From Candidatus Falkowbacteria bacterium (GTDB lineage: Bacteria; Patescibacteriota; Patescibacteriia; CAIXNZ01): a stretch of DNA of 64,000 nt. Positions 10,598 to 55,283 of this stretch are shown here, in pieces. The stretch's first letter is position 1. Each line of letters starts with the position of its first letter. The DNA is taken from NCBI GenBank assembly GCA_963774955.1, contig CAVZGV010000005.1, positions 30,495 through 94,494 of the forward strand, written 5' to 3'. The notes under the pieces are model-generated. The model did not search any database. It had not been told where the DNA came from and saw nothing but the letters and a program-made list of their open reading frames with translations. The position numbers and the translations under genes are program-made.

Positions 10598-10633
10598 TTT
10601 TACGGACGGACACACTTCAGTGTGTTACGGCTC
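10598..10633. repeat. right 36-bp direct repeat (REP-like hairpin)
   Basis: tttacggacggacacacttcagtgtgttacggctc, same orientation as the left copy, just upstream of the transposase start. Confidence 0.7.
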
Positions 10634-13154: not shown

Positions 13155-13172
13155 CTTTTAAAATTCTGACAT

Positions 13173-13205
13173 CACAAAACCCCTCTGCCTTCAGAGGGGT
13201 TTTTC
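13173..13205. terminator. bidirectional terminator between convergent genes
   Basis: AAACCCCTCTG-cctt-CAGAGGGGTTTTT. Confidence 0.7.
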
Positions 13206-13217
13206 TTTTGCTGCAAA

Positions 13218-14180: not shown

Positions 14181-14328
14181 ATATATTAAGTGCTAAGTGT
14201 TAAGGTAAGGAAGCCAGTTAAGTGACCAGTGCTAAGTGTAATTTGAGATAAATACTTTTCACCTTTTACCTTACACCAAACCAACATCTTAACCCTGCCG
14301 GCAGACAAACCATTCACGATTCACTAAT

Positions 14329-14643
14329 TTACATTTCTTCAGTTACCACCGGTTCAGTACTTTCCAATTTATTAACCTCGGCAATTTTATTTATTGCTCC
14401 GGACTTAAATTTAACTACGGCATCATCAACCACCATATTATCCTCATCAAAACTAATAACCTGAGATTTATTTATTATTAAACTATCCTCAAATAAGCCG
14501 GGAATTAATTTCTTCGTACGAACATAATATTTCTCAATTATTCCGGTATCAGTTTCCAGCCCAAAATCTCGAATATAACCCAAAAACTGACCGCCTTGAG
14601 TTACAACCGTGACTTTCTTCAATTGTTTCAGGGAAATAATCAT
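14329..14643 (-). CDS. PRC-barrel domain protein
   Basis: 104 aa, LKKVTVVTQGGQFLGYIRDFGLETDTGII pattern. Confidence 0.6.
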   Translation of the reverse strand: MIISLKQLKKVTVVTQGGQFLGYIRDFGLETDTGIIEKYYVRTKKLIPGLFEDSLIINKSQVISFDEDNMVVDDAVVKFKSGAINKIAEVNKLESTEPVVTEEM

Positions 14644-14653
14644 AGCTGAGAAC

Positions 14654-15439
14654 TTATTTATTTAAGGTTGAAAATCCTTCCTTCGAAGTTTCACCTTCCA
14701 AATTGTCTTTTTTCTTCTTTTTAAACATCCAAACCTGCTGTAAGGCCATTAAAAGCGTAGTTAAAAACCAATATAGAGAAAGACCGGCCGGCAGGCTGAC
14801 GCCAATGATGACTGTAAACATCGGCATAAAATATACAATCTGTTTATTCATAATGGACATCATTTTTTCATCTGATGAGCCGGCAATTTCCTTGCCCTTA
14901 ATTAAGGGCGGATTTTTTGTCATCATCATTTTGCTTTGCCAAAACTGAGCCAGACCGGCCATAATTGCCAAGACAATACTTGGTTTGGATAAATCAATAA
15001 AACCTAGTGATATAGTATTGATGGTACCGGGATTTTGGATAAAGGCATACAGCATTTCCATGCTCTGGGATTGCAAACCATGAATAAAAACCTGATATAA
15101 AGCAATCAAAAACGGCAACTGGATCAGCAGCGGCAGACAAGAAGAAAATGGATTTACATTTTCACTCTTATAAAGAATCATCAGTTCCTTGGCCATCTTT
15201 TCCTGATCATCCTTATACTGTTTACGCAAAGCTTCAACTTTTGGCTGGATATCCTGCAAGGCTCGCTGCGATTTAATTGACTGGTAATAAAGCGGAAACA
15301 AAATCACCCTAATGACCAAAGTCAGAAAGATAATAGCCAAGCCAATATCATGACCGGGAATGGTATTGTAAAGCCAAACTAAAGCATTGAACAGCGGCTG
15401 ATAAAAAATCGTATTGTAAACTAATACTATATAGGACAT
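14654..15439 (-). CDS. yidC: membrane protein insertase YidC/Oxa1 family (short form)
   Basis: ...LAIIFLTLVIRVILFPL...SQRALQDIQPKVEALRKQYKDDQEKMAKELMILYKSENVNPFSSCLPLLIQLP.. matches YidC. Confidence 0.85.
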   Translation of the reverse strand: MSYIVLVYNTIFYQPLFNALVWLYNTIPGHDIGLAIIFLTLVIRVILFPLYYQSIKSQRALQDIQPKVEALRKQYKDDQEKMAKELMILYKSENVNPFSSCLPLLIQLPFLIALYQVFIHGLQSQSMEMLYAFIQNPGTINTISLGFIDLSKPSIVLAIMAGLAQFWQSKMMMTKNPPLIKGKEIAGSSDEKMMSIMNKQIVYFMPMFTVIIGVSLPAGLSLYWFLTTLLMALQQVWMFKKKKKDNLEGETSKEGFSTLNK

Positions 15440-15475
15440 TTTTTAATTTTAATTTTTAAATATAACTCCTGGAAA

Positions 15476-16900
15476 TTAATCCTGAGCTTTAACTTTTTTT
15501 TCTTTTTTAACCTTTTTCTCCTTTGGTTCCTTGGTTTTTTTAACCTTTTTTTCTGCCTTTTCTACCTTTTCTTCTTTAACTTCTTCAGCTGCTGTCTCTT
15601 TTATTGCTGCCTGCGCCGGCACCTCTTCGGCCACAGCAGCAGCGACTTCTTCCTTTTCACCGGTCGGAGTTTCCTTTAGAATATTAATTCTCCAGCCGGT
15701 CAATTTGGCTGCCAGACGGACATTCTGGCCTTCTTTACCAATAGCCAATGACAGCTGATCTTCAGCCACTGTCACTGAAGCCATTTTATCTGTTTCGTTA
15801 ATTTCTATACCCAAAACCTTGGCCGGAGACAAAGCATTACTGATAAACCTACGGGGATCTTCATTCCATTCAATAATATCAATTTTTTCTCCGCCGATTT
15901 CATTGATAATTGTTTGGATTCTGGAGCCTCTTTGTCCCACGCACGAGCCAATCGGATCAATACCCTCAGCGTTGCTTCTGACTGCAACTTTAGAACGGGC
16001 TCCGGCTTCGCGGGCAATGGCCATAATATCAATGGATTTATTGCCAATTTCAGGAATTTCATTCTCAAATAATTTACTGATTAATTCAGGGCTGGTGCGG
16101 GAAACAATGATTTCTGCGCCTTTGATCGTCATTTCCACCCGGGCAACATAAAATTTCAGACGATCACCTGGATTATATCGTTCTGACCTTATTTGTTCTT
16201 CCATCGGCATCAGGGCAGTTACTTTACCGAAATCAACCAAGACTCCGCGCATTTCTTTGCGTTGGACAGAACCGGTTAATAATTCGTGTTCTTTGGATTT
16301 AAATTCATTAAAGACATTTTCTCTTTCAGCTTCTCTGATTTTCTGAATAATAACCTGTTTAGCAGTCTGGGCAGCCATACGGCCAAAATCATCAGGAATC
16401 TCCAATGGAATTATTAATTCATCGCCGACTTTAATTGATTTCTTTATTTTCTTGGCATCATCTAATAGCAGCTCTACTTTGGGATTGAATTTAATAGCTT
16501 CCTGGGGCAATTCATTGTCATCGATATCCTCTACGGTCAAAATTTTAGTTGTCTCTTTTTCCTCAGTTTTATTGCCTTTTTCTTCGGCGACTGTTTCACC
16601 GGCTTCGGTTAAAGCCGGTTCTCCCGGAACTTTAACAAATTTCTTATCACGTCCCAAAACATCGATTTCAGCAATTATTTCTTCCGGAAAATCAACGACT
16701 ATTTTTTTATCATAAACCTTCATTTTTCCGCTTTCTAAATCAAATTCAAAAATAATATTCTGATTCTTGGTGCCAAAATCCTTGCGATAAGCCGCGGCCA
16801 AGGCTGAATTAATTGTTTCCATGATTGAGGCTTCGGATAAGCCTTTTTCAACGGCAATTTGTTTGATTGCCTGCTGAATTGTTTTCAAATCTAAATTCAT
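15476..16900 (-). CDS. nusA: transcription termination/antitermination factor NusA
   Basis: NusA N-domain, S1 and tandem KH regions (..VAVRSNAEGIDPIGSCVGQRGSRIQTIINEIGGEKIDII..AIGKEGQNVRLAAKLTGWRINI..) followed by a K/E-rich tail. Confidence 0.9.
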   Translation of the reverse strand: MNLDLKTIQQAIKQIAVEKGLSEASIMETINSALAAAYRKDFGTKNQNIIFEFDLESGKMKVYDKKIVVDFPEEIIAEIDVLGRDKKFVKVPGEPALTEAGETVAEEKGNKTEEKETTKILTVEDIDDNELPQEAIKFNPKVELLLDDAKKIKKSIKVGDELIIPLEIPDDFGRMAAQTAKQVIIQKIREAERENVFNEFKSKEHELLTGSVQRKEMRGVLVDFGKVTALMPMEEQIRSERYNPGDRLKFYVARVEMTIKGAEIIVSRTSPELISKLFENEIPEIGNKSIDIMAIAREAGARSKVAVRSNAEGIDPIGSCVGQRGSRIQTIINEIGGEKIDIIEWNEDPRRFISNALSPAKVLGIEINETDKMASVTVAEDQLSLAIGKEGQNVRLAAKLTGWRINILKETPTGEKEEVAAAVAEEVPAQAAIKETAAEEVKEEKVEKAEKKVKKTKEPKEKKVKKEKKVKAQD

Positions 16901-16910
16901 ATTTATTAAG

Positions 16911-16983
16911 TTACAAATCTACAAATATATTACAAATTACTACAAATTTGTAATTATTTGTAGCGTATTTGTATATTTGTAGC
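16911..16983. promoter_or_regulatory. array of CTACAAAT/ATTTGTAG half-sites including the palindrome TACAAATT-actac-AAATTTGTA, upstream of nusA
   Basis: Seen directly. 22-nt and 17-nt stretches are identical to a second array at 59531-59590. Confidence 0.5.
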
Positions 16984-17109
16984 ATAATTTTTAAAATAAA
17001 AACCAGTTTAAAATACATTAAACTAGTCTATTAGTATTATACATGTTTTAAAACCCGATGTCAAATTGAAAAAATTGCCTGAAATAACCGCGATTTTAAA
17101 ATAATTTTC

Positions 17110-17472
17110 TTACTCGGAAATATTTTTATGATGCCGGATTATCGCCTTACTCTCACTGCGATTAATCACAATGGCAATTATATCAAAACGGTAATTATCA
17201 TGATTAATCTGGGCTTTGGCCAAATATTGCCAGGCCGCCTGATGCATTTTTTCCTTTTTCCGGTCAGTCACGGCTTCTTCAGGTAAGCCATACTTGTCAG
17301 ATAAGCGGGTTTTAACTTCAATAAAAATTATTTGCCCGTCTTTTTGGGCGATCAGATCGATTTCACCCTGTCGGGTATAATAATTACTTTCTACAAGCTG
17401 ATAATTTCGTTGTTTTAAAAAATCGACAGCTAGTTTTTGACCATAGCTGCCGACTTTTATCTTGAAATTCAT
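17110..17472 (-). CDS. yraN: YraN family (UPF0102) endonuclease
   Basis: GEIDLIAQKDGQIIFIEVKTR...RFDIIAIV pattern. Confidence 0.8.
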   Translation of the reverse strand: MNFKIKVGSYGQKLAVDFLKQRNYQLVESNYYTRQGEIDLIAQKDGQIIFIEVKTRLSDKYGLPEEAVTDRKKEKMHQAAWQYLAKAQINHDNYRFDIIAIVINRSESKAIIRHHKNISE

Positions 17473-17901
17473 TTAATTTTTAACTAAGTACTTTTTTAAT
17501 TGGCGCTTCTGATCCAATTCCTTTTGCTTCTGAGGCATTTCTTTGAGATAAAATCTCAGCAAATAAAAAAACCAAATAAGCGCCATCAGCAGCCAGATCA
17601 TTATCCAAAAACGACCGCCCAAAACCGGAATTGCCTCATACCTAAAAAAGAAAATAAAGGTAAAAGAAACAGCCATAGTTAGAAAAAAACTGCCTGTTTT
17701 GTGCACAAAATTAGCTTTAATAAAGCTGCGCTTGGCAATCAGCTTTTTTTCGCTGAAATAACCGGCGCCATAACATGCATAGCAAACTAATAAAACCACC
17801 AGAAATATTTTCTCAAAGCGGTCAGAGAGTTCGCCTGGATTAACTTCCAGCCAAAAAGGCACGGAAAAAATTTTCCCCCAGTCAATTCCTAGAAATACCA
17901 T
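17473..17901 (-). CDS. hypothetical membrane protein
   Basis: 142 aa with 4 hydrophobic helices. Confidence 0.4.
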   Translation of the reverse strand: MVFLGIDWGKIFSVPFWLEVNPGELSDRFEKIFLVVLLVCYACYGAGYFSEKKLIAKRSFIKANFVHKTGSFFLTMAVSFTFIFFFRYEAIPVLGGRFWIMIWLLMALIWFFYLLRFYLKEMPQKQKELDQKRQLKKYLVKN

Positions 17902-31469: not shown

Positions 31470-31545
31470 TTATCCTCCCTTGATATCAAAGAACTTTAAG
31501 ATTACTTAGATTATCAGAATAAACTAATTTTGTCAACATAAATTA

Positions 31546-31575
31546 AAAAGGGCAAACTATCAGTTCACCCTTTTG
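31546..31575 (-). terminator. terminator downstream of the GNAT gene 31664-32146
   Basis: On the minus strand, AAAAGGG-15 nt-CCCTTTTT. Confidence 0.45.
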
Positions 31576-31585
31576 GGGATTGCCA

Positions 31586-31640
31586 AATTTACTTAAAGAA
31601 CGAACGAATTTTTTGCCACAGTCTTTGACAGCACCAGCAA
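31586..31640. repeat. ~55-bp imperfect direct repeat (copy 1), remnant of a small-gene 3' end
   Basis: aaatttacttaaagaacgaacgaattttttgccacagtctttgacagcaccagcaa is about 88% identical to 36697-36753. The minus-strand translation gives ..CCQRLWQKIRSFFK* with no upstream ATG. Confidence 0.6.
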
Positions 31641-31663
31641 TTTTGCCAAATATTTATTCTATT

Positions 31664-32146
31664 TTAAATTTTCCTGACCATAACCAAGACTTCGGGCAAA
31701 TTTTTATTATTCGGATATTTTTTTATTTTTTTAGCTACAAAACCGCAATCTTTATAAGTATTAACTGCCTGTAAATTATCAGGCCTAACCTCCAGATATA
31801 TTTTCCCAATCTTTTTCCGCTTGGCTTTTGTCAGTAATATTTTGATGGCAGTTGTACCGATTCCCCTGCCCCAATACTTCTTTTCACCTATAACTATTTG
31901 GGTCTCATACCATCCGCCTTTCCTGGCAGCTAAAGTAATGTGACCGACTGTTTTCTTACCATATTCAATCATGAACTGCCAATTTTTCTTATCTTCCAGC
32001 ATGTCCAGAAAATATTTCCGCACTTCAAAATCAGACAGTATTTTAAAATTGCCGCTGGTTACACTGATAAGTCCCCTATCACGCCACCACTTGAAAAAGT
32101 ATTTAATATCAGATGCTTTTAATTTTCTTAAATGAATTACTGCCAT
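31664..32146 (-). CDS. GNAT family N-acetyltransferase
   Basis: ..IVIGEKKYWGRGIGTTAIKILL.. motif A. Confidence 0.8.
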   Translation of the reverse strand: MAVIHLRKLKASDIKYFFKWWRDRGLISVTSGNFKILSDFEVRKYFLDMLEDKKNWQFMIEYGKKTVGHITLAARKGGWYETQIVIGEKKYWGRGIGTTAIKILLTKAKRKKIGKIYLEVRPDNLQAVNTYKDCGFVAKKIKKYPNNKNLPEVLVMVRKI

Positions 32147-32150
32147 CTAC

Positions 32151-32768
32151 TTATTTTAAATTTATTATCTTTTCCAACTCCTTAACAAATTTTTTCGTTA
32201 AACTGCTTTTACGATATCGCATGGGCATTTTTCGCCACTTTTTTATTCCACGCTTAGCAAATAATTTTGCTTTGGCTTTGTTTCCCATTTGAATGTAAAG
32301 TGTTGCCAAAGCATAATCAGAGCCATAGTGTCCCCTAATATGCTTGTAGGCAAGAAGATAAAATTTTTCAGCATTTTTTAAATCGCCAAAATTCCGATAA
32401 CAATGTCCGATATACATATTATATGCCTTATCATTAGAAATCCTGATGTACTTTTTAGCCAGGGAAAATGCCCGCTTATCCTTTCGCCTGATTAAAAATC
32501 TAATCTTGCCAAAATAACCGCCGTTATATTTGGGATACTTGTTTATCAATCGGTCATAAATGTCTTCCGATTCCTTAAGATCAAGTTGATCTTTATTTTT
32601 CTGACCACGTTTGTCTAATAATTCACCGAGCATTGATAAAACATCCTTGTCATTAGGATATTTTTCTAACCATTGCCTTAAAAGTAATATACCGGGAGTA
32701 TAATTATCCTGATCGCGATAATGATTAAATTTTTGATGTAATTTTTTAGCTGCTAATTTTTTATTCAT
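32151..32768 (-). CDS. hypothetical basic protein with TPR-like helical repeats
   Basis: 205 aa, K/R-rich, with repeated helical hairpins (..AYNMYIGHCYRNFGDLKNAEKFYLLAY..). Confidence 0.35.
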   Translation of the reverse strand: MNKKLAAKKLHQKFNHYRDQDNYTPGILLLRQWLEKYPNDKDVLSMLGELLDKRGQKNKDQLDLKESEDIYDRLINKYPKYNGGYFGKIRFLIRRKDKRAFSLAKKYIRISNDKAYNMYIGHCYRNFGDLKNAEKFYLLAYKHIRGHYGSDYALATLYIQMGNKAKAKLFAKRGIKKWRKMPMRYRKSSLTKKFVKELEKIINLK

Positions 32769-32831
32769 ACAATAACTATTTTCTTAGAACTACTTATATG
32801 CTAACAAATATCAGGGTAAAGATAAACCATA

Positions 32832-33305
32832 TTACAACTTAATAATCGGGGTATAATTCCCGCCTTTTGAGGTAATCTTTGCCTTAAACGCCAGCCAAAT
32901 ACCCAGAGAGGCCTTATTATCTTTATGTATAGTACAAGATAAATATTTGAGGTTACTATTCTTAGCAATTTCCAATATCTGTTTAAAAGCTTGAGTTGTA
33001 ATCCCCATTCCCCAATACTTGCTGGCTAACCAGTAACCGACATTGGCTTTCTTTGTCCCTAAATTAATATGACTTAGGGAAATCATGCCAATGGCCCGGC
33101 TTTTCAACATAATCGTAAATATTTGAGCCCGGTTATTTTTTGCCCAAACAATATTTTTAGTCTTAAACTCTTGAGCAGTTATTTTTTTACCTTCACCACC
33201 TAAACTCTGATCTAATTTTTCATCAGTATTCAAAATACTGACAAATTGGTTTACCTGCCTGGCGTTAAGATCATGAACGGATTTTATCCGGATATATTTT
33301 AACAT
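32832..33305 (-). CDS. GNAT family N-acetyltransferase (RimJ/RimL-like)
   Basis: ..GYWLASKYWGMGITTQAFKQIL.. motif A. Confidence 0.8.
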   Translation of the reverse strand: MLKYIRIKSVHDLNARQVNQFVSILNTDEKLDQSLGGEGKKITAQEFKTKNIVWAKNNRAQIFTIMLKSRAIGMISLSHINLGTKKANVGYWLASKYWGMGITTQAFKQILEIAKNSNLKYLSCTIHKDNKASLGIWLAFKAKITSKGGNYTPIIKL

Positions 33306-33470
33306 ATTTGCTGCTAGTTATTGATTTAAGTATAATAATAAACCGGCCGAAAGAACAGACCGGGTTTGCTGACCATTATTAATCGGGAATGGTATATGAG
33401 TCAAGAATAGGATGAAACAGAGATAAAAAGCAAAAAAAGCACCGAGCCGAAGCCCGGTGCTTATAGATTA

Positions 33471-34304
33471 TTACCCGCCTATCTCAGCTAGTTTTTTTCG
33501 GTAAAACTCAGGGAAAACTTTCCGGAACGCAGGGTTAATGTCATCATTCCGAAAATAATTTTCCTGCAGATATACCAATGCTGCCATTCCTGGCTTGAAC
33601 TTTTCGAAAATGGCTCGATTGTTTACCCGAGGGCCGGTTGAAATTACGCGAGTCAATCCGTGTTTGCGCAGAACTTCAGCCTGGACATTCAAAGCCCGCC
33701 ACTCAGCGTCCCACCATTCCACCTGACAATCATATGAATTATATCCTTCCAATTCACACAACTTGAACCGCATGCCCGATTGGTGCTTGCCCATCCAGTC
33801 CTCAATGTGACGATTTTCATGCACCAAATATGAGGCCAAGAATCCTGGCCGCTCATTCTCAACGGAAAAATATTTGGGGTTAATGCCAAGGGCAAAATTT
33901 ATTCCGCTGAAAACCAGGGGACTGACATTTTCCTGACTCGTGTAAGCCGTTTTTAATTGCCTGGAACGAATCAAAGTAATTAAATTGGTTCTGGCGTCAT
34001 TATCAGGAATAGAATTGATAATTTCAACCAGCTTGTGCTGATCACTTTGCAACTCCTGGGCAGAATACAACCTCCCGACACTGGTGTCAGCCAGAATCAT
34101 CGTAAACTCATCGGAAGATAAATCTGCCACAGAATCATCAGAAACGGTCAGAACAAGGACAGAGCAGGCTGCCAGCAGAACCATTGACGTAAAGGCGATT
34201 GCCAGGCTCAACTTCTTTTTGGTCCACCAGCCTTGCTTATTCTCCGTGGCCATTGCCTTTTTGCCGGTCTTATTTTTACCCGACTTGATTCTCTTGCTCA
34301 TCAC
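33471..34304 (-). CDS. membrane-anchored protein with HExxH motif (putative zinc metallopeptidase)
   Basis: N-terminal K-rich stretch plus a TM helix, then LVHENRHIEDW (HExxH). GC-richer than neighbouring DNA. Confidence 0.4.
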   Translation of the reverse strand: MMSKRIKSGKNKTGKKAMATENKQGWWTKKKLSLAIAFTSMVLLAACSVLVLTVSDDSVADLSSDEFTMILADTSVGRLYSAQELQSDQHKLVEIINSIPDNDARTNLITLIRSRQLKTAYTSQENVSPLVFSGINFALGINPKYFSVENERPGFLASYLVHENRHIEDWMGKHQSGMRFKLCELEGYNSYDCQVEWWDAEWRALNVQAEVLRKHGLTRVISTGPRVNNRAIFEKFKPGMAALVYLQENYFRNDDINPAFRKVFPEFYRKKLAEIGG

Positions 34305-34424
34305 AACTACTCCTTTCGCCCGCTCGGGCTGCTATTTTGTTTTTGTAAAGAACTTTAACAAAGCGACGCTTACCTAATTAAACATTCAATAATATCAGGA
34401 ATTAAGACATTTGTCAATGGTAAA

Positions 34425-34455
34425 CAAAAAAAAGCCCCTTCTCAGAGGGGCTTTA
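34425..34455. terminator. bidirectional terminator
   Basis: A8-GCCCCTTCTCAGAGGGGC-TTT. Confidence 0.55.
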
Positions 34456-34458
34456 AAT

Positions 34459-34779
34459 TTAATCATTGTAAAGAGAAACGTAAGACCGAATCCTTTCCTC
34501 AGAAACCGGCATTTCGCGATCAATTAAGCAAGTAATTATCGCTTGCCGTAATTCCTGACCGACCAGCCGCTTTTCATCCGTCTCTTTGTAATTAATATCA
34601 GCGGCAATCTCATGGATCTCGGACAACACATTACCGCAATAAAAGTTTATCGGAGCTTCAGCTGTCGATACCATCGGCTTAAAGTTTTTGCAGCTGTCTT
34701 TGTTTTTAAAGACAACCCCCAAAATTAACCCAATGACCGATGCTAAAACTAAACTGGCCACCAATACGTTCCTTTTCAT
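34459..34779 (-). CDS. small secreted/membrane-anchored hypothetical protein
   Basis: 106 aa with an N-terminal hydrophobic segment. Confidence 0.4.
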   Translation of the reverse strand: MKRNVLVASLVLASVIGLILGVVFKNKDSCKNFKPMVSTAEAPINFYCGNVLSEIHEIAADINYKETDEKRLVGQELRQAIITCLIDREMPVSEERIRSYVSLYND

Positions 34780-35051
34780 CTTCCTTTCCTCCTTGCCCGC
34801 TTTTGTCGGGCTTTTGATTTTAAAGACCTATTATAATTATAAATTACCTAAAAATTGCGGCAATGATTTATAAGGCAAAAAAGTGTTAAAAATAAATAAC
34901 AAAAAAGAGCCAAAATGCATTTTGACTCTGAAAATATTACTATATCCTCTGCGAATTCATGCAAACAATCGCTAACAAAGATATACACATAGCCTTTTTG
35001 TTTAGCTAAATAAAAAAACTGACATCAAGAGCAGAGCTGGTTAAAAATATA

Positions 35052-35657
35052 TTATTCGGTATAATTTTTCAATAAGCCCTCCAATCTTCTAAACTCGTCA
35101 TCCTCCCCCTTAATCGTCCAGTCAACATTTTCCGCCAAACGAGAGCATAACTTTAAAAACTCTTCCCGGCCAGCCAACACCGGCACGCCTAAATCATCGG
35201 CAATATTATGCAAAACTTTCAGAGTTACCTCAAGTTCACTTTTAGCCGTGATCTTTTCTATTTCCAAATAAGCCACGTCTTTAGCTTTGATCAGAGAAGC
35301 AATAATATCGCCGTCATAGGAAAAATTATAGCTTTCCCGTTCGCCTACCCGCACGTCATCAAAATCAAGGAGTAAAAATAATTTCACGAATCCTATAAAA
35401 TCCTGAGCGCTAATCGGCTGGTTTATTTCCACCCGATCTGCCGCATGCCAGTCTCCCTTTTTAACGGCAATTTCAGCCTGACCGTTAGTAATTCTGATTC
35501 TGACATCCACTTCCCCGTTGGCAGTTTTACCGAAAAACATAACAGACAGCCGTTTGGTTTTGGAAAGTAAAGGCCGTGACGCTGACAACTTCTCCAAGAC
35601 TTTTTCAAAATCACCCGACACATCCGCCCTAATTTCACATTCAATATTTTTCTCCAT
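35052..35657 (-). CDS. CYTH-like domain protein (triphosphate tunnel metalloenzyme; CyaB/ThTPase fold)
   Basis: N-terminal MEKNIECEIRADV (ExExK-like) and C-terminal ..VAYLEIEKI.. acidic strands typical of CYTH. Confidence 0.5.
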   Translation of the reverse strand: MEKNIECEIRADVSGDFEKVLEKLSASRPLLSKTKRLSVMFFGKTANGEVDVRIRITNGQAEIAVKKGDWHAADRVEINQPISAQDFIGFVKLFLLLDFDDVRVGERESYNFSYDGDIIASLIKAKDVAYLEIEKITAKSELEVTLKVLHNIADDLGVPVLAGREEFLKLCSRLAENVDWTIKGEDDEFRRLEGLLKNYTE

Positions 35658-35667
35658 ATTTATAAAT

Positions 35668-36096
35668 TTAATTTATCCGCAGCTTTAATTCCTTAACACA
35701 CAATTTCAAATAAGCCGCAGTTTTATAAGATCTTAGCTGATTCAGATTAACCCATGCATATTCACTGTGTTCCTTAGGGTTAACTTTAATATTTTTTTTA
35801 TCCGTCTTAGCCAGGAAAATTAAAGTGAAAAATTGTTTCTTCTTTTTTCTGTCGATGTTTGAATAACAATAAAAAAGCTTCGGATTCTTCAGCTTCAAAC
35901 CGGATTCTTCAAGCGCTTCCCGCACCACCCCATTTTCCGGGATTTCACCATCCTCAAGCGTTCCTCCGGGCAAATCCCACCGACCTTCCAAAAATACGCC
36001 TTTGGCTCTTTTTAATATCAAAAGCTTATTATTATTTATAAACGCAACATGGACAATAATTCCTTTATGCATATAATTGATAATAATTATTTTCAA
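35668..36096 (-). CDS. NUDIX hydrolase
   Basis: Nudix box [24 protein letters not shown]. Confidence 0.85.
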
Positions 36097-36172
36097 TTTT
36101 ATATTTTTATAATATCACACTTTTTAACTTTAAAATAATATCAGATTACTACTTTTCTGCTATAATACCTTT

Positions 36173-36676
36173 ATGAATAAACGCCTACAAAAACAAATTC
36201 TTAAAATGGTTGCCAAGGATCAGGCTATGCGCTTTTTCGGGGTTTGGAATCCCAGGATAGACCATAAAAATACCAATGCCTTAAAAAATATTATTAAAAA
36301 GTATGGCTGGCCTGATATTCCCTTAGTTGGTAAGAAAGCGAGCCTGGGCGCCTTTCTTTTGGCCCAGCATGCTGATAAAGATTTAAAATTTCAAAAGCTA
36401 TGCCTGAAAATAATTACTGAAAAATTTAAAGAGCATAAAATGGAGCCGCAAAGCGTTGCTTACTTAACTGACCGCGTTCTAGTAAATTCCGGACAAAAAC
36501 AAATCTACGGCACTCAATTTTATTTTAATAAAAAGACCAAAAAGTTTGGACCGCGTCCAATCAATGATCGAAAAAATCTTTTTAAGCGCCGTCGCCAAAT
36601 GAAACTTGGTTCATTTTGGGCAAACTACAAACTGCTGCTCAAAAGGCACAGGGAGATACAAATAAAAAAAAGGTAA
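36173..36676 (+). CDS. hypothetical protein
   Basis: 167-aa ORF. A TATAAT box sits 7 nt upstream of the ATG, suggesting a leaderless transcript. Confidence 0.4.
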   Translation: MNKRLQKQILKMVAKDQAMRFFGVWNPRIDHKNTNALKNIIKKYGWPDIPLVGKKASLGAFLLAQHADKDLKFQKLCLKIITEKFKEHKMEPQSVAYLTDRVLVNSGQKQIYGTQFYFNKKTKKFGPRPINDRKNLFKRRRQMKLGSFWANYKLLLKRHREIQIKKR

Positions 36677-36696
36677 ATCAATGGTTTACCCTTTTT

Positions 36697-36753
36697 AAAT
36701 TTACTTATTAAAGAACGAGCAGATTTTTTGCCACAGTCTTTGGCACCACGAAG
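36697..36753. repeat. ~55-bp imperfect direct repeat (copy 2), overlapping the 3' end of ORF 36701-36910
   Basis: aaatttacttattaaagaacgagcagattttttgccacagtctttggcaccacg. It encodes ..WCQRLWQKICSFFNK*. Confidence 0.6.
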
Positions 36754-36910
36754 GCTTGGGTTCTTCCTTTTCATCCGGGTCCTTGTCTTCATGACTTGAG
36801 CCACTGCCATAATAGCCCATGCGCTCGCGCCAGTGTGGCGCAGGATTTTCATTTACCCATCCGGTAATCGGATCATAATCCCTGGAGCAACCATCATCAA
36901 AATCACGCAT
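36701..36910 (-). CDS. small hypothetical protein (W/H/G-rich), last gene of the ATP-grasp operon
   Basis: 69-aa ORF, GC-richer, 36 nt downstream of the HExxH gene. Confidence 0.35.
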   Translation of the reverse strand: MRDFDDGCSRDYDPITGWVNENPAPHWRERMGYYGSGSSHEDKDPDEKEEPKPSWCQRLWQKICSFFNK

Positions 36911-36946
36911 GACGACACCTCCTTTTTAAAACTCTTAAAGACGCCG

Positions 36947-37603
36947 CTAAACCTTTGACCTGGTTTGGTCTGCCAATTTATCAACCAATTGATAAATATT
37001 TTTATTCTTCAGCCAGATATTTTTGATAGTTGTTCTCAACTGCGAATGTTCCTCATACCCTTTATCAGCACATTCCATTAAATTAAAAAAATCCTGATTC
37101 AAAATTTCGGTTAAAGATTCCTTGATGTCATAATATTGCTTCAAATTTAACTCCTTATTAAAGCCCTCACCAAAAGCATACCAGGTATAAAAATGCCATA
37201 ATTCATGCATAACCACCATTTTGGGCCGATCTGAATCTAAGCTGACAAAAAATAAATTATCTATCAATGAATAACCGCAACGGTCATTGGACGTTAGATA
37301 GGCGGTAATTTTATCTACCGGCAAGCTGATCTCAAAAATCTCATCAGCCCGTTTAAAAAATTGATTCTGAACTTTATCCCATTCAGTCTGGAATTTGGCC
37401 AGCTGGGCTTGAGGGTCAATTTTATTAATATCCAAATAATTTTTTATAAATTCCTGCAATAACACGTCATCCAACTCTTCCCCGTAAGTCTGCTGATAAA
37501 TAAAATGCTGACGAGAGGGTTTGCCGCCATGACCCAAAGATTTGGCAGCAATATGAAAATTGAGAATATCTTTTGATAAATTGTATTCAAATTGTATGGT
37601 CAT
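36947..37603 (-). CDS. HExxH-motif protein (putative zinc peptidase; candidate leader peptidase)
   Basis: ..VVMHELWHFYTWYAFGEG.. HExxH+E-like motif. A 6-nt gap to the upstream MTase gene suggests the same operon. Confidence 0.45.
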   Translation of the reverse strand: MTIQFEYNLSKDILNFHIAAKSLGHGGKPSRQHFIYQQTYGEELDDVLLQEFIKNYLDINKIDPQAQLAKFQTEWDKVQNQFFKRADEIFEISLPVDKITAYLTSNDRCGYSLIDNLFFVSLDSDRPKMVVMHELWHFYTWYAFGEGFNKELNLKQYYDIKESLTEILNQDFFNLMECADKGYEEHSQLRTTIKNIWLKNKNIYQLVDKLADQTRSKV

Positions 37604-37609
37604 AAAGAT

Positions 37610-38212
37610 TTACCTATTTTTTTGAGCAATCATTCTGACAACTCCATGTTGATGAGAATCTTCATAGCCTGCATGACCAGGATCAGCAACAACCAATTCT
37701 CTATAAAAAATTAAATCGTAATCACTAAACAAACTTTTAAGCTCTTCGGCTTCAAAGTAGGTCTTATTAGCATTATTTTGATATGAAGGATCTTTGGTCG
37801 TAAATGCGGCAATAATCACATAGCCGCCTGATTGTAACCCGTTTTTTATATTTTCAATTAAGTTGTATCCGTCCGTCTTTGGGAGAAACTGCAGAATATT
37901 AAACGCGTTAATGATGGCAAATTTATTTTTCTCAATTAAATAACTAGAAACATTGCCACAAATAGCCTTTATAGTTTTGAGCCCCGATTCCACGGACTTG
38001 TCTTTAAGCTTTTTTACTCCCTCCTGAGATTGATCAACGGCCGTAACCTTAAAGCCCTGTTTGGCCATAAATGCAGAGTCACGCCCCTGGCCGCAACCCA
38101 AGTCTAAAAACTCAGCCCCCGGCCTAACTTTTTTCCAAACCATGCCTAATAGTTGATTACGCTGATTACCCCAAACATCGACGGTTTTTTTATAAATTTT
38201 ATTGTAGTCCAT
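37610..38212 (-). CDS. class I SAM-dependent methyltransferase (TehB-like)
   Basis: Motif I FLDLGCGQGRDS, 200 aa, 4-nt gap to the upstream gene. Confidence 0.8.
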   Translation of the reverse strand: MDYNKIYKKTVDVWGNQRNQLLGMVWKKVRPGAEFLDLGCGQGRDSAFMAKQGFKVTAVDQSQEGVKKLKDKSVESGLKTIKAICGNVSSYLIEKNKFAIINAFNILQFLPKTDGYNLIENIKNGLQSGGYVIIAAFTTKDPSYQNNANKTYFEAEELKSLFSDYDLIFYRELVVADPGHAGYEDSHQHGVVRMIAQKNR

Positions 38213-38216
38213 AAAA

Positions 38217-38645
38217 TTAAAATCTATCTATTTTCCTTGGATCCATTCCAATTTCATTTTCAATTTCAGAATAAATCTCTTCTTTGCTTTTACCCCAATT
38301 CTGCCGCTCAAAATAGGTATCGTAAAATCCCCATTTTTCTTTACCGCCCAGCTCGCGGTATTTTTTTATTAATTTATAGGCCAATTTAAAATAATCCAAT
38401 CGTCCTACATTGATTAAAATATTAGCAGCATAATAATAATCGTCCCTATTTTCCAACGCCTCATTCTCAATTAAAAAATAAACGATTCTAGCTCTTTCTT
38501 CGCACTCACCTTTAAACACATAAAACGGCAATTTATCTTCAGCTTCCACCAATTTGGGGGTGCCTTGTTGTTTTATAATTTCCTGACGTCTTTGCTGATC
38601 AAATTCATGAAAATTTTTTAAAAGTGTTGAAATAATTTTAGTCAT
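38217..38645 (-). CDS. hypothetical protein within the graspetide operon
   Basis: 142-aa ORF, 55 nt downstream of the ATP-grasp gene. No recognisable family. Confidence 0.4.
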   Translation of the reverse strand: MTKIISTLLKNFHEFDQQRRQEIIKQQGTPKLVEAEDKLPFYVFKGECEERARIVYFLIENEALENRDDYYYAANILINVGRLDYFKLAYKLIKKYRELGGKEKWGFYDTYFERQNWGKSKEEIYSEIENEIGMDPRKIDRF

Positions 38646-38700
38646 ATATTTAAAATTAAAAAGGGATACTAAGCTTTGGCTTTTCTCCCTAAGTATACTT

Positions 38701-39663
38701 TCAGACTAGCAATTCGGCAATGGCCTGTGCGATCTGAAGTTCTGTTTTTAGTTGCACAAAATACCACTGCCCATTGGGATTAATCTCTAAAAAGATATAA
38801 TCCCCGTTCGGAGTGACAATCATGTCAATGCAGCCGAATTTCAAGCCAAGTGCTTTCATGTAGCCATGAATTTGTTCCTCAATCTGGACGGGCAAAATCA
38901 TCGGCTCCATTTTCACGTCAAAATCATTAAGCTGGGGCTTGCGGCGCCAATCCAAGGAAGTTGCCTCATCTTGTTGAGACAAGATTTTTACCGCGAATAT
39001 TTTTTCGCCTACCACTGTAATCCTAAGTTCATAAGCCTTAGGCACAATTTCCTGAAAAATTGACGGCGACATCTTTACGGAATCAATCTCTCTCATTTGT
39101 TCAGCTGTCACCAGATTTGTATAAATGACCCGGTTAAGCATGGGACTGGAAGCAAGTATTTTAACTATAATCCTGCCACCATGCTTGTCATAAAACTCAC
39201 GAACCTTTTCAGGATCTGAAGTAATACAGGTGCTTGGCACCATAAAACCATTTTTGACGGCTTGATCAAGTTGAAAAATTTTATTCTCAGCTATTTGTAT
39301 GGCCCAGGGATCGTTCAGCCATTTTTTATCACGACAAACACTCCAAATTGCCTGTCTTAAAATATGGAACTGACGATCAATGAACTGCCGGTGCTCCACG
39401 GGATTATAATTCAATAATTCCCTGGGCAGATGCGGCTTCATGTACCAGACAGCGGAAAATTCACTTAGGTCAAATGACTGACCGTCAATGACTAGTCCGA
39501 ACTTTTGCCTGCCATCAATAATTTCAAAATTCAAATACTCGCCAAGCAAGCATTTATCCTGCTTAAAAAGTTTTGCGGACGCACCAAGCTTTTCTAAGGC
39601 AGAAAAAACCGCTTGAAACGCTTTTACTTCATAAACGCCAGAGTTACCAATTGCTAAAATCAT
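38701..39663 (-). CDS. ATP-grasp ribosomal-peptide maturase, MdnC/MvdD (microviridin/graspetide) family
   Basis: 320 aa. ..SAVWYMKP.., ..ELRITVVGEKIFAVKILSQQDEATSLDWRR.., ..GCIDMIVTPNGDYIFLEINPNGQWYF..IAQAIAELLV are collinear with recalled MdnC motifs (SAVWYRR, ELRITIVGEQIFTAAI, YDWRK, AIDMIVTP..YIFLEINPVGEFF, ISQAIAEILV). GGAGG RBS 7 nt upstream. Confidence 0.8.
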   Translation of the reverse strand: MILAIGNSGVYEVKAFQAVFSALEKLGASAKLFKQDKCLLGEYLNFEIIDGRQKFGLVIDGQSFDLSEFSAVWYMKPHLPRELLNYNPVEHRQFIDRQFHILRQAIWSVCRDKKWLNDPWAIQIAENKIFQLDQAVKNGFMVPSTCITSDPEKVREFYDKHGGRIIVKILASSPMLNRVIYTNLVTAEQMREIDSVKMSPSIFQEIVPKAYELRITVVGEKIFAVKILSQQDEATSLDWRRKPQLNDFDVKMEPMILPVQIEEQIHGYMKALGLKFGCIDMIVTPNGDYIFLEINPNGQWYFVQLKTELQIAQAIAELLV

Positions 39664-39676
39664 CCGCTAACCTCCT

Positions 39677-39706
39677 ATTTAAAACAGGGGGCAAATATTT
39701 GCCCCC
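39677..39706 (-). terminator. intra-operon attenuator hairpin between the precursor and the ATP-grasp gene
   Basis: Perfect palindrome GGGGGCAAATATTTGCCCCC, followed on the minus strand by tgtttt. Confidence 0.5.
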
Positions 39707-39726
39707 TGGCTGGGTTGGAGCTGATC

Positions 39727-39825
39727 CTATGAAGCATCAGCACCGTCAATGTCATCCCAAGCGCCACTGGTTGTGGGGCTTACCGCTCCTTCACGCACTT
39801 CAAGAAACATGAGAATGAACGGCAT
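39727..39825 (-). CDS. graspetide precursor peptide (32 aa): MPFILMFLEVREGAVSPTTSGAWDDIDGADAS
   Basis: Translated by hand. An ATG lies 7 nt after GGAGGT, giving 32 codons before TAG. The leader PFILMFL resembles the microviridin PFFARFL recognition helix; the core has TTS and four Asp. Not in the ORF track (below the 60-aa cutoff). Confidence 0.6.
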   Translation of the reverse strand: MPFILMFLEVREGAVSPTTSGAWDDIDGADAS

Positions 39826-40048
39826 GGCAGGTACCTCCTTTCTTAGAATTTTAAAGACCTACATGTATCATAAAACATCAGTATAATACAGCAAGGAAAT
39901 TAAATCATAAAATTTGATAATATTTTGTAACAAAATTAATGTAAATCCTTTTAAACCATTAAAACACAGGTTTTAACTGAACAAAAAACTGTTAAAAATC
40001 ACTAACAAAAATATCCACAGCCCCTTGTAATTTCAACTGCCATTCATT

Positions 40049-40080
40049 GACAAAGTCGCTTATTTTTGATAATCTGAATC
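40049..40080 (+). promoter_or_regulatory. putative sigma70 promoter of the MFS gene
   Basis: TTGACA..(15-17 nt)..GATAAT/TAATCT, followed by an AAAGGAGAAG RBS. Confidence 0.4.
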
Positions 40081-40114
40081 ATTAACCAGTTCTTTAGACA
40101 AAGGAGAAGATATA

Positions 40115-41287
40115 ATGAAAAAATCAAAAACCATGGTAATCATCGGCCTTGTGATTATGGAGCTTTTGGCTAGCATTGATACCACCGGAGTTACGGTCAT
40201 GGTGCCGACTTTGCAAGCATATTTTAAAATCCCGCCGGAAATAGCCGGTTGGATTTTAATGGCCTATCTGATTCCCTTTTCTGTTTGCCTGGTGCCCATG
40301 GGCTATCTGGCTGACAGAATCGGCAAACCGGAAAAAGTCATTGTCTGGGGTATTTTAACTTTTGCCCTGGCTTCAGGGCTGTGCGGACTGGCAGTTAACG
40401 AATACATGCTGATCGCCTGCCGAATTGTCAAAGGCATGGCTGCGGCCGGCATGTTTGCCTGCGAATTTGCCATTATCCTTAAATACTGGCAGGAACCGCG
40501 ACGCATCGTAGAAATCATCATGATCGGTCTGGCAGTCGGCGTTTTAATCGGTCCCATCTGCGGCGGCTTATTTTCCAGTCCCGAAACCTGGCGTTACTTT
40601 TTTCTGATCGGAACAGTTTTAGCCCTGATAGGCTTTATCGCCTACCAATGGATTAAAAATCTGGAACCGATAAAACGCGAAGCAGACACCCTAACAGTCC
40701 AACCGCAAACCTTCAGCCAAAAAGCTAAACTGCTGATAAAAATCATGTTCTGGGGCATGATCCTTGATTTCATAATTTCAGCGGCCACCCAGGGCGCCAA
40801 TCTGCTTATCACTTTGCAGGTTCAAGAAAATCTGCACAAAACTCCGCTTTATAACGGCATGATTCTACTGGTAATCGCTCTGGGCATGATCCTGGCCAAT
40901 ACTTTGGGCCTAAGCAGTAAACTGTTTAAGGAAATCCGCTATGCAGTCATGGCCAGCGGATCCGCCTTTGCCCTAATGCTCGTTTTAACCGCTTTGCTGA
41001 CTGACTGGACAGGAATTTTGGCCTTTGGCTTTTACTTTATCATGGGTATAAGTCTGGGCATTATTCTGGCCACAGTCGAACTTATGGTTTTGACCCCATT
41101 GCCCACCCAACAACTGGCTCAAGGCAACGGCTGGATTGTCAGTTCCATGCAGGCCGGTTATGGTCTGGCTTCGGCCCTGATTCCCTGGCTGTTTTTAAGG
41201 ACAGGTATAACCATGGCCGCGTGCATTTTGGCCGGACTGGTTTACCTGGCTCTTGGTTCTTTCTTTATTTTCCAAAAACGAAAGTAA
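40115..41287 (+). CDS. MFS transporter (12 TM; DHA-like efflux), divergent from the graspetide operon
   Basis: 390 aa with 12 predicted helices and a ..GYLADRIGKPEK.. loop-2/3 motif. Confidence 0.85.
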   Translation: MKKSKTMVIIGLVIMELLASIDTTGVTVMVPTLQAYFKIPPEIAGWILMAYLIPFSVCLVPMGYLADRIGKPEKVIVWGILTFALASGLCGLAVNEYMLIACRIVKGMAAAGMFACEFAIILKYWQEPRRIVEIIMIGLAVGVLIGPICGGLFSSPETWRYFFLIGTVLALIGFIAYQWIKNLEPIKREADTLTVQPQTFSQKAKLLIKIMFWGMILDFIISAATQGANLLITLQVQENLHKTPLYNGMILLVIALGMILANTLGLSSKLFKEIRYAVMASGSAFALMLVLTALLTDWTGILAFGFYFIMGISLGIILATVELMVLTPLPTQQLAQGNGWIVSSMQAGYGLASALIPWLFLRTGITMAACILAGLVYLALGSFFIFQKRK

Positions 41288-41327: not shown

Positions 41328-41388
41328 CCAATTTTTATATAAAAGAAAAAAGGACTTCGCGTTCGAAGTCCTTGGGGTGGTTATTTTG

Positions 41389-41460
41389 GGGTGGACGAAG
41401 GGATTTGAACCCTCAACCCCTAGGGCCACAACCTAGTGCTCTACCATTGAGCTACGTCCA
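41389..41460 (-). tRNA. tRNA-His (anticodon GTG), followed by a hairpin terminator
   Basis: On the minus strand GTGGACG TA GCTC AATGGTA GAGC A CTAGG TTGTGGC CCTAG .. GAGGG TTCAAAT CCCTT CGTCCAC C. The downstream GGACTTCG-cgtt-CGAAGTCC plus T-run (41353-41372) acts as the terminator. Confidence 0.8.
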
Positions 41461-41543
41461 CATCCCTAGGTAACCTTTAAGGTTTATATCGCAACTTAAC
41501 ATATAACATTTTAGATGTCAAGTCACTCAAAACCGTTACCTGA

Positions 41544-53315: not shown

Positions 53316-54959
53316 TTAAGCCTGACGCTGACCCTTAAGAATTGTTACTTCATAAAGATCTAAAAGCGCTATGGCAGAAGCCTTGATGATATTGCGGGAA
53401 ACCGCAGCCGTATCCTCAAAGCCAAATGGTGTTTTGCCGGTAATGGAAACCCGCACTCTGGACGCCGTGCCTTTGCCGTTGCCGTTGATAATGCGGACTT
53501 TGAACCCGACCAGCTCCACCGCCTGCAAAACAGGATAGACATTGGCCAGAACGGGTTTCAGCGCATTTTTAATGGCATCAACCGGTCCGTCATCGCCTCT
53601 TTCCCAGGGTTTGACCACGCTGCCGTTCGGAAAATTGACTTCGATCGAAGATTCCGACCGGTGCTTTTTGGGCGCACCGTTTTCCCAGACCAGGGTCGAA
53701 TGTGATTTGATCAGCCTGATCTGAAACGGTCGAACGTAATTTTCCAGCTGACGCAGGGCAATCAGGGCAAAGGTGCCTGGTGCGGATTCCAGATTGAAAC
53801 CCTGCTTATCAAGGCTGCGAATCTGGCCGAGGATTTTGTAAACCGCTGGATCATCACGTTCAATTGGCACTCCCAATTCGTTTAAAGCCGCAACCACCGC
53901 GTTGCGCCCGGCCTCGCCGGAAATCGGCAAACGTCTTTTGGCTCCCACCAGGTTAGGATTGATGTGCTCCTGCAAAGTCGGATCAAGTCTGGCTCCCAGC
54001 TGATGCGAAGCGGCTTTGTGGGTAAAGGCCCAGGACCCGACGTAAGGCTGATTGTTGGACAAGGCCTGGTTGTTTTTTTCAGCCACAAACTCGGCCAAAG
54101 CTTTCAAGCCCTTCGTGGAATCAATGCCCTGACACTTGATGCCTTTTTTGTGAATCAAAGTCGGTAGCAGGCTGGTCAGCTTGGGCATGCCCACTCGTTC
54201 GCTTTCACCGTTGACCGTACACTGCGCAAAAGTGGCGCCCAAATTAATGGCGCTCAGGGTATTGGCCAGGGCAAATTCACCGTCGTCATGCATATGCACA
54301 CCCCAGGCCTGATTATCCAAAAGGTCTGACATCTCGTGGATAACCATTTCCACCTGTTCGGGCAGCATGCCGCCGTTGGTGTCGCAGAGGATAATCACGT
54401 CGGCTCCGCCGGCAATGGCCGCCTCCATGGTTTTGTAGGCATAGTCCGGATCTTCCAGATAACCGTCAAAAAAATGCTCGGCATCATAAAAGACCGTACC
54501 GCCCTGCTTTTTCAGGAATTTAACCGAATCCTCAATCATGCGCAGGTTTTCCTTGAGGCTGGTTTTCAGAACTTCAAAGACATGACGTTTGGAACTTTTA
54601 CCGAAAATGGCAAAATTCTTCAGCCCGGTTTTAACCAAGGCTTTTAAACGTTTGCTGTCTTTGGCCTCGACATCTTTTTCACCGGTCGAGCCGAAAACCA
54701 CCAATCTCTCTCTGCCCTTAAACTCCGATTGAGTGACGAGCTGATAAAACTCCAAAGCCTTTTGCAGGGCTTCCTTTTCCTCGTCTTCTTTGACTTCTTG
54801 TTCCGGAACCGGCCAAGGACACTCAATCCAAGGCACTCCAAACTCCAGTAACTTTTCCGCAATTGCCACCATGTCCTGAGGCGTAAAACTGCTCCCCATT
54901 GATTGTCCGCCTTCGCGCAACGTCGTATCACAGATCAACACGCCTGTCTTCTCGGTCAT
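53316..54959 (-). CDS. 2-isopropylmalate synthase / (R)-citramalate synthase family (LeuA/CimA)
   Basis: DTTLREGGQ (DTTLRDGEQ-like) at the N-terminus, HMHDDGEFALANTLSAI (HxH metal site), and a C-terminal LeuA-dimer regulatory domain. The track ORF starts 53 codons earlier; the Met before ..EKTGVLICDTTLREGGQ at 54959 is the likely start. Markedly GC-rich. Confidence 0.8.
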   Translation of the reverse strand: MTEKTGVLICDTTLREGGQSMGSSFTPQDMVAIAEKLLEFGVPWIECPWPVPEQEVKEDEEKEALQKALEFYQLVTQSEFKGRERLVVFGSTGEKDVEAKDSKRLKALVKTGLKNFAIFGKSSKRHVFEVLKTSLKENLRMIEDSVKFLKKQGGTVFYDAEHFFDGYLEDPDYAYKTMEAAIAGGADVIILCDTNGGMLPEQVEMVIHEMSDLLDNQAWGVHMHDDGEFALANTLSAINLGATFAQCTVNGESERVGMPKLTSLLPTLIHKKGIKCQGIDSTKGLKALAEFVAEKNNQALSNNQPYVGSWAFTHKAASHQLGARLDPTLQEHINPNLVGAKRRLPISGEAGRNAVVAALNELGVPIERDDPAVYKILGQIRSLDKQGFNLESAPGTFALIALRQLENYVRPFQIRLIKSHSTLVWENGAPKKHRSESSIEVNFPNGSVVKPWERGDDGPVDAIKNALKPVLANVYPVLQAVELVGFKVRIINGNGKGTASRVRVSITGKTPFGFEDTAAVSRNIIKASAIALLDLYEVTILKGQRQA

Positions 54960-55283
54960 AAGCCCCTCCTTATTTACCCGGTTGGAAACGGGTTTAACTG
55001 GAAACAAAACCATCCTGACAACACTGATTATATGTAAAGAACATTCCTTTATATAAAAAATTCCAGCCCCCTTATGGAAGGCCGGAACTTTGTTATCAAT
55101 AATTGAAATTTTTAACAATGTAAAAGCCTTCCATTTAATGCTGGAATAATAATGTTAATAATAATGGCGATTGTTCTGTAGTAATTCATATTTTTCATTT
55201 TATACTGGCAGTTTAGCAAAATATTGTGTTAATGTCAAGTCTAATTGAAAGATGGCATCTGGCCATAAGCTATTAGCTATACG

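Follow-up and report, generated by a model that had tools for sequence, protein, structure and literature searches.

Why should the tail of a small gene recur, without its start, on the far side of an array of accessory genes? The question is raised by a 64,000-nucleotide (nt) stretch of a Candidatus Falkowbacteria contig, called the window here, in whose positions all coordinates are given. One copy of the tail (copy B, near 36.7 kb) forms the 3' end of a small gene that we call S, and its start-less counterpart (copy A, near 31.6 kb) lies 5.1 kb away. The reading that we favour, with modest confidence, is that copy A is the relic tail of a second copy of S, that it arose from recombination at the 3' end of S and that it has been kept as a terminator. 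The two copies and the gene are laid out as follows.

31545-31639, minus strand: full homologous segment of copy A, from alignments
36667-36751, minus strand: full homologous segment of copy B, from alignments, comprising 16 codons, the stop, a short spacer and the terminator hairpin
31589-31639, minus strand: coding relic of copy A, about 16 codons (CWCCQRLWQKIRSFFK) and a TAA stop, with no start codon
36701-36910, minus strand: S, a 69-amino-acid (aa) orphan gene whose last 16 codons and stop are copy B, recognized by its open reading frame (ORF), ribosome-binding site and homologues
31608-31627 (partner 36723-36742): identical core of 20 nt, an exact match between A and B and a candidate crossover or conversion tract

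A repeat finder aligned 31593-31634 with 36708-36749 without gaps, 42 nt at 88% identity, and so bore out the initial annotation, which had reported two copies, about 88% identical, at these places. With gaps, blastn aligned 31585-31634 with 36697-36749 at 84.9% identity over 53 columns (E=2.3e-11 within the window), and the longest exact match was 20 nt (31608-31627 = 36723-36742). The 19-mer TTTTTTGCCACAGTCTTTG occurs exactly twice in the 64 kb, and none of 100 shuffles gave two matches. When indels are allowed, the homology between A and B runs through the stop, spacer, hairpin and U-tract for about 95 nt; the repeat first described as about 55 bp is thus real, but its true extent includes the spacer and hairpin. 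Its derivation from the 3' end of a gene also held, since the best-conserved part is coding and the similarity extends beyond the terminator. The two translations proposed earlier agree with the sequence as well: the S ORF ends in ..PSWCQRLWQKICSFFNK, and the minus strand of copy A reads ..NCWCCQRLWQKIRSFFK in preserved frame, the stretch from one flanking stop to the other containing neither ATG, GTG nor TTG.

The homology of coding sequence, spacer and hairpin is present in four aligned sequences, namely A, B and the S tails of two related contigs. One of these, L001, is a 7.9-kb contig (GCA_026395755.1 JAPLYC010000046.1) from a metagenome-assembled genome labelled Candidatus Parcubacteria, and is the only close relative among GTDB species representatives; the other, L092 (ERZ27248036 k141_4052994), is a short contig. 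Two full paralogous genes in a relative, or similarity confined to a shared terminator, had been named as findings that would speak against the proposal; the L001 contig carries a single intact copy instead of such a pair, and the similarity reaches beyond the terminator. A Logan contig that was assembled separately (run ERR12035938, 9,373 nt) matches the window in gene order over a span that takes in the methyltransferase, both copies and part of the MMPL gene. Because it spans both junctions in the same order, a chimeric assembly or misassembly is unlikely. The 19-mer core was also matched in two viral contigs, in each as the 19-mer alone inside unrelated high-GC DNA, and these matches were set aside as chance.

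The gene from which the tail derives is real. Its start is preceded by a strong ribosome-binding site (AAGGAGGT). A word-indexed search of 5.8 billion proteins recovered only S itself, and an exhaustive phmmer search of 1.84 billion representative proteins yielded two real homologues, giving a family of three: a protein of 68 aa in L092 (67% identity) and an orthologue of 65 aa in L001 (60% identity). Long repetitive proteins that also matched S in the representative search were rejected as low-complexity artefacts. The nucleotide differences at codon positions 1, 2 and 3 numbered 13, 12 and 29 against L092 and 17, 14 and 28 against L001; this excess at third positions indicates coding constraint and hence that S is a real, fast-evolving gene. 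In the window, L001 and L092, that is in 3/3 genomes, S is preceded by p218, a gene with an HELWH motif. The hairpin behind S was listed by the terminator scan as a plus-strand site at 36672-36690, and RNA of the minus strand gave a fold of -11.9 kcal/mol (z = -2.7).

36947-37603, minus strand: p218 with its HELWH motif, conserved as the neighbour upstream of S (window, L001 and L092)
36667-36697, minus strand: terminator B, a hairpin and U-tract common to the convergent S (minus strand) and DUF6624 (plus strand) genes (scan and fold)

Copy A, in turn, sits immediately behind the stop of the acetyltransferase gene GNAT160 and immediately ahead of the promoter-like region of a conserved DUF1302-MMPL-LolA-like operon, and was the only gene relic found when the intergenic DNA of the array was searched for further ones. 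The elements around it are these.

31546-31574, minus strand: terminator A (predicted), GGGUGAAC-UGAUA-GUUUGCCC followed by UUUUU (scan with 13 pairs, and fold)
31510-31536, minus strand: promoter-like TTGACA-N15-GATAAT ahead of the DUF1302-MMPL-LolA-like operon, a weak match found by eye that the consensus scan did not flag
31643-31651 and 31580-31588, minus strand: 9-nt direct repeat ATTTGGCAA bracketing the coding relic, with only these 2 occurrences in the window

The hairpin of copy A is a GC-rich stem-loop followed by a U-tract, lies downstream of a transcription unit and is on the transcribed strand, as is usual for a Rho-independent terminator. The minus-strand RNA folds at -14.8 kcal/mol (z = -2.4), and the hairpins of B, L001 and L092 fold alike. 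Compared with B and L001, the stem of A carries two substitutions (U-A to U-G and A-U to G-U) that keep the pairing, and its loop has diverged. Terminator A probably ends the GNAT157-TPR-GNAT160 transcription unit, and the relic would now serve as a terminator. The promoter-like match begins about 10 nt past the hairpin and is followed by the ribosome-binding site of the DUF1302-like gene. The 9-mer ATTTGGCAA is also found in the spacer past the S stop codon in L092, and copy B is without it. Relative to the other three sequences, a TGT is added in copy A and an AAT is absent; both of these 3-nt indels keep the frame, which we regard as mild evidence of time spent inside a functional gene.

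The divergence between the copies is not uniform along their length, as the following counts of differing positions show.

18-nt QRLWQK core: A-B 0/18, B-L001 5/18, A-L001 5/18, A-L092 5/18, B-L092 5/18
next 15 nt (IxSFF): A-B 3/15, B-L001 2/15, A-L092 0/15
29-nt hairpin: A-B 8/29, B-L001 3/29

Between A and B, 0 of 20-26 core positions differ compared with 11/44 downstream (Fisher p = 0.005-0.013). By the core, A and B belong together, whereas by the downstream part B belongs with L001 and A stands apart. Such disagreement is to be expected if two S-type tails that differ in age underwent a crossover or gene conversion. To judge from the alignments, a single recent copy followed by drift would not yield such a mosaic.

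What lies between the copies had been listed in the initial annotation as GNAT, a TPR-like protein, GNAT, an HExxH protein of the membrane, a small secreted protein, CYTH, Nudix and one gene of no recognized kind. We found the same content, the last gene being assigned to DUF6624.

31664-32146, minus strand: GNAT160 acetyltransferase (Pfam E=1e-14), its stop in frame with relic A
32151-33305, minus strand: TPR205 and GNAT157, one transcription unit with GNAT160 (Pfam)
33471-34779, minus strand: p277 (membrane protein, HExxH motif) and p106 (signal-peptide-like N terminus), each with its own promoter-like site and terminator
35052-36096, minus strand: Nudix-CYTH pair (Pfam), with no L001 counterpart
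36173-36676, plus strand: DUF6624 gene, convergent with S (Pfam E=7e-20), at the same position in L001

The array consists of separate units in series, with terminator-like hairpins after CYTH, p106, p277 and relic A, and promoter-like sites come after three of these four hairpins.

The 5.1-kb block is not a discrete mobile insertion, because it contains no recombinase, has no distinct composition and shares 4/8 of its genes with the neighbourhood of S in L001, and because the 3' end of the nearby tRNA gene is not repeated. Pfam scans covered the block, its flanks and, in the rest of the window, the larger ORFs; they detected neither a recombinase of the tyrosine or serine type nor a transposase, except for a weak IS200-like domain, described below. 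The low-GC stretch spans 31.5-40 kb and reaches past copy B; gene GC is 32-45% in the block and 30-50% in the rest of the window. Since GC and GC at third codon positions (GC3) vary from gene to gene throughout the window, composition was discarded as evidence of insertion, and the proposed comparison of the block's composition with its flanks, made here on GC and GC3, did not set the block apart. A tRNA-targeted island was likewise rejected, the 3' end of tRNA-His (41387-41461) being repeated nowhere in the window. Of the earlier proposal of an insertion or recombination at the 3' end of a small gene, the recombination scar therefore stands and the single discrete 5.1-kb insertion does not.

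The only mobility-related match in the window is a low-GC (32%) ORF at 10014-10613 (minus strand) with a weak IS200-like Y1 transposase domain (E=2e-6).

In order to see how the array is arranged elsewhere, gene orders were compared with those of related contigs. Besides L001 and L092, contigs L084, L085, L086, L093 (ERZ23498388 scaffold_607253, also a short contig) and L094 were found through GNAT160 homologues of 73-79% identity. L001 is collinear with the window from MFS to DUF6624. It lacks MTase200, which in the window lies between p142 and p218, and past S its order is DUF6624(-), GNAT160-like, pep208, p106, p277, compared with DUF6624(-), Nudix, CYTH, p106, p277, GNAT157, TPR, GNAT160 in the window. 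The Nudix-CYTH pair therefore stands where L001 has GNAT160-pep208, and the four block genes DUF6624, GNAT160, p106 and p277 are also found beside S in L001 in another order. The other contigs read as follows.

L084: p218-like, pepMA, DUF6624(-), GNAT160, p142, GNAT157
L085: GNAT160, p142, GNAT157
L086: GNAT160, pepMA, DUF6624(-)
L093 (1-1147): TPR205, GNAT160, MTase200-like
L094: GNAT160, pep208

The array genes in L001, L084, L085, L086, L093 and L094 are at about 75-86% nt identity and are differently ordered; the TPR-GNAT160 adjacency is common to the window and L093. The nucleotide homology of each module stops close to gene borders. In L092 an unrelated gene follows S and its terminator, so that synteny breaks directly past the S terminator. 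Taken together, the varied orders and the break in L092 indicate a flexible region of cassette shuffling in which the S end with its terminator is one breakpoint. The initial annotation had suspected a recombination-prone accessory region, and the orders in L001, L084-L086, L093 and L094 together with the L092 break agree with this. It had also proposed to look in relatives for a single intact S and for the presence or absence of the block: one intact S copy is on the L001 contig, its tail matching both window copies, but the block is not present or absent as a unit, half of it being shared in rearranged form. An apparent relic of the p142 tail upstream of the MTase gene in L093 proved to be AT-rich similarity only and was rejected.

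Nucleotide identity between the window and L001 was 74-80% for MFS, 94% for the precursor ORF described below, 84.5% for ATP-grasp, 86.5% for p142, 76% for p218, 69% for S, 79% for DUF6624 and 86% for the syntenic p277 and p106. These differences from module to module suggest modules with separate histories. Within 36106-40656, ATP-grasp, p142, p106 and p277 were at 84-86% and p218, S and DUF6624 at 69-79% to L001.

Wider anchors were also searched. With p218 as the anchor, 79 loci were obtained in GTDB genomes, and besides L001 (also returned as L002) none had S, ATP-grasp or the block. With ATP-grasp as the anchor, the metagenome contigs gave only a 1-kb contig and a relative of 29% identity. 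The DUF1302-like flank, followed as a route to an empty site, gave 7 homologues (54-58% aa identity, the closest 58%) in which the operon was conserved and the upstream neighbours were unrelated. One distant relative, L089, whose DUF1302 protein is 54% identical in aa, has p277-like, two MFS, TPR205-like (66% aa) and ATP-grasp (33% aa) genes at 12190-17672, a few kb downstream of the DUF1302-MMPL-LolA operon; these gene families recur near the operon in the wider lineage.

What history would leave such an arrangement? On the relic reading, the surviving part of the second S copy would be its last 16 codons, the stop, the spacer and its own Rho-independent terminator, left by recombination at the 3' end of S on the distal edge of a modular accessory array. 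Two S-type tails of different age, either paralogues or copies from related strains, would have recombined in the identical core. This may have happened by either of two routes. DNA carrying only an S tail and cassettes may have entered by a Campbell-type single crossover, in which case A would be the displaced resident tail and the tail of B the incoming, L001-like one. Alternatively, as the GNAT160-MTase200 adjacency in L093 suggests, a full MTase200-p218-S unit may once have stood behind GNAT160 and later been deleted down to its tail. The relic would have been kept since its hairpin and U-tract would terminate the GNAT157-TPR-GNAT160 transcript, and termination at A would insulate the DUF1302-MMPL-LolA-like operon. 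As direct repeats, A and B would also be a possible substrate for loss of the 5.1-kb block.

Several points weigh against this history. The divergence mosaic is based on about 70 nt. Neither a second, intact S nor an empty site turned up in the relatives recovered, which are either short contigs or too distant, and the L001 contig ends before the expected position of the distal relic, so that the count of one copy in L001 holds for this contig only. The function of terminator A is a prediction, and the promoter downstream of it is a weak match made by eye.

One competing account is a recent short local copy, in which about 95 nt of tail and terminator would have been duplicated behind GNAT160 by template switching or illegitimate recombination and selected as a terminator without ever belonging to a second gene. 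In its favour, nothing but the tail is there, the 9-nt direct repeat ATTTGGCAA around the relic may be junction microhomology, and A and B, compared with L001 and L092, have in common a derived 'RLWQ' core and 'AAGTAAATTT'. However, such a copy should match B uniformly, and the differences instead amount to 0/20 in the core, 3/15 in IxSFF and 8/29 in the hairpin; A also agrees with L092 in its IRSFF codons and its spacer, and B has lost the two. We consider this account unlikely. It is distinctly unlikely that an integrase-borne island entered the 3' end of S site-specifically and supplied a new tail in place of the old one, with B as attL, A as attR carrying the displaced original tail and the integrase lost afterwards. 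The geometry would fit, since one end has the gene intact and the other, beside a conserved operon, has a 3' relic that lacks a start, as would the identical 20-nt core, the grouping of the downstream part of B with L001 while that of A is older, and the synteny break directly past the S terminator in L092; repeats of target-gene parts have been described for additive genomic islands (PMC4898812). Yet neither the block nor the window has a tyrosine or serine recombinase, the composition of the block is not distinct, half of its genes lie beside S in L001 in a different order, and no empty site was observed.

Two further explanations concern copy A itself. It might be expressed, either as a read-through C-terminal extension of GNAT160 or as an independent micro-peptide, which we hold to be most improbable. 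GNAT160 and relic A share a reading frame, in which the TAA stop of GNAT160 is followed by 24 sense codons and then a stop (..VRKI*NRINIWQNCWCCQRLWQKIRSFFK*), and the two 3-nt indels preserve this frame; but frame sharing with GNAT160 has a 1 in 3 chance and is probably a coincidence. Termination at TAA is efficient, the end of GNAT160 coincides with that of its homologues, an independent ORF would have neither start codon nor ribosome-binding site, and the tail is on no other GNAT160 homologue among the related contigs. Similarity by chance, or an assembly artefact that joined strain variants, has a next to negligible probability: the sequence comes from a metagenome assembly and the repeat is short, but the match has E=2e-11, the shuffles gave 0/100, and the ERR12035938 Logan contig has the same order at both junctions. 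A 20-nt exact repeat is, besides, shorter than the usual assembly k-mers.

The nearest known pattern is the direct repeat of the 3' part of a target gene beside additive flexible genomic islands (PMC4898812). Here direct repeats flank the block, B lies inside an intact S and A is start-less, as in integrative elements. The locus thus resembles the attL/attR of islands at the 3' ends of tRNA, tmRNA or protein genes in that the repeat is a gene 3' end of which one copy is the intact gene and the other start-less, the core is identical and the cassette content differs between relatives. It differs from them in that the target is a 69-aa orphan protein gene and not a tRNA, there is no integrase, the repeats are about 85% identical with indels and a mosaic, and the cargo is compositionally ordinary and partly present in the nearest relative. 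Cassette combinations differ as in an additive flexible island, and the same chromosomal position was shown for L001 only; unlike such an island, the hotspot is not a tRNA or tmRNA and the repeat stems from a protein-coding gene. Remnants left by segmental duplication and partial deletion of a paralogue are similar in that a 3' fragment, truncated but still in its original frame and with its terminator, lies beside a breakpoint. They differ in that no intact second copy was seen here in any relative and that the mosaic calls for a crossover or conversion in addition.

Replacement flexible genomic islands are described as being diversified by homologous recombination in conserved flanks (PMC4033161). 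The locus is alike in that gene sets are swapped between conserved flanks: L001 has GNAT160-pep208 and the window Nudix-CYTH in the interval bounded by the promoter region of DUF6624 and by the terminator that lies upstream of p106. It is unlike these islands in that the genes are small and functionally unrelated, not surface-glycan clusters, and their order changes too. With integron arrays the locus shares a run of small accessory genes, most of them in one orientation, that relatives carry in varying order. In contrast to integrons, it has no IntI, one gene is on the opposite strand, and terminators with a GC stem and U-tract take the place of attC; no integrase was found and the intergenic hairpins are terminator-like, although the formal attC model was not run.

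A bolder possibility is that the S tail with its terminator acts as an integrase-free attachment site, which we judge highly unlikely. Two S tails would recombine to give excised circles with one hybrid tail and cassettes, and the circles would re-enter S-bearing genomes by a single crossover in the identical core of about 20-26 nt. If true, these genomes would have a system that captures cassettes by homology, with a fast-evolving orphan gene at its centre, and only then would the locus pose a new question; otherwise it is an ordinary recombination scar. On the favoured reading, the relic would mark a concrete breakpoint at which small accessory genes reshuffle between related uncultured bacteria, the nearest public records being labelled Parcubacteria or Patescibacteria, and would be a case in which a gene fragment may be kept for a useful, predicted terminator.

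The block abuts a graspetide locus, of which S is not obviously a part. Its position is four genes downstream of the ATP-grasp maturase (TIGR04185/04187, E about 1e-63), and S evolves faster than any other gene of the locus (69% nt to L001), which does not fit a graspetide precursor. The likely precursor is a different ORF that the automated gene calls missed.

39727-39825, minus strand: ORF of 32 aa (MPFILMFLEVREGAVSPTTSGAWDDIDGADAS) with ribosome-binding site AAGGAGGT, directly upstream of the ATP-grasp maturase

This ORF is followed by a GC-rich hairpin at 39685-39708 and is 100% identical in L001 at the protein level, with 6/6 nt differences synonymous. Two other genes of the region were also considered. 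The gene p142 (38217-38645) occurs in L084 and L085 between GNAT160 and GNAT157 with no ATP-grasp nearby, and p218 is a stand-alone gene without a Pfam family whose 79 GTDB loci are mostly labelled Patescibacteria, Paceibacterota or Saccharibacteria. Neither p142 nor p218 is a dedicated graspetide gene.

Some further observations were made in the window. It contains two Nudix genes, one in the block (35668-36096, minus strand) and one at 62248-62736 (minus strand). For the Nudix gene of the block, which lies beside the CYTH-domain gene, defence-system annotation gave a match to PDC-S07 (E=3.5e-18), a candidate defence family of PADLOC, and it gave no match besides this one. A 234-aa ORF at 3138-3842 (minus strand) matches only the C-terminal part of Cpn60/GroEL (profile 331-488 of 490) and may be a gene fragment. 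An aminotransferase, a prephenate dehydrogenase and a prephenate dehydratase of aromatic amino-acid biosynthesis and a LeuA-like enzyme are encoded at 5531-8489 and 53316-55118; aromatic amino-acid biosynthesis, a LeuA-like enzyme and a DUF1302-MMPL-LolA-like operon are unusual for Patescibacteria.

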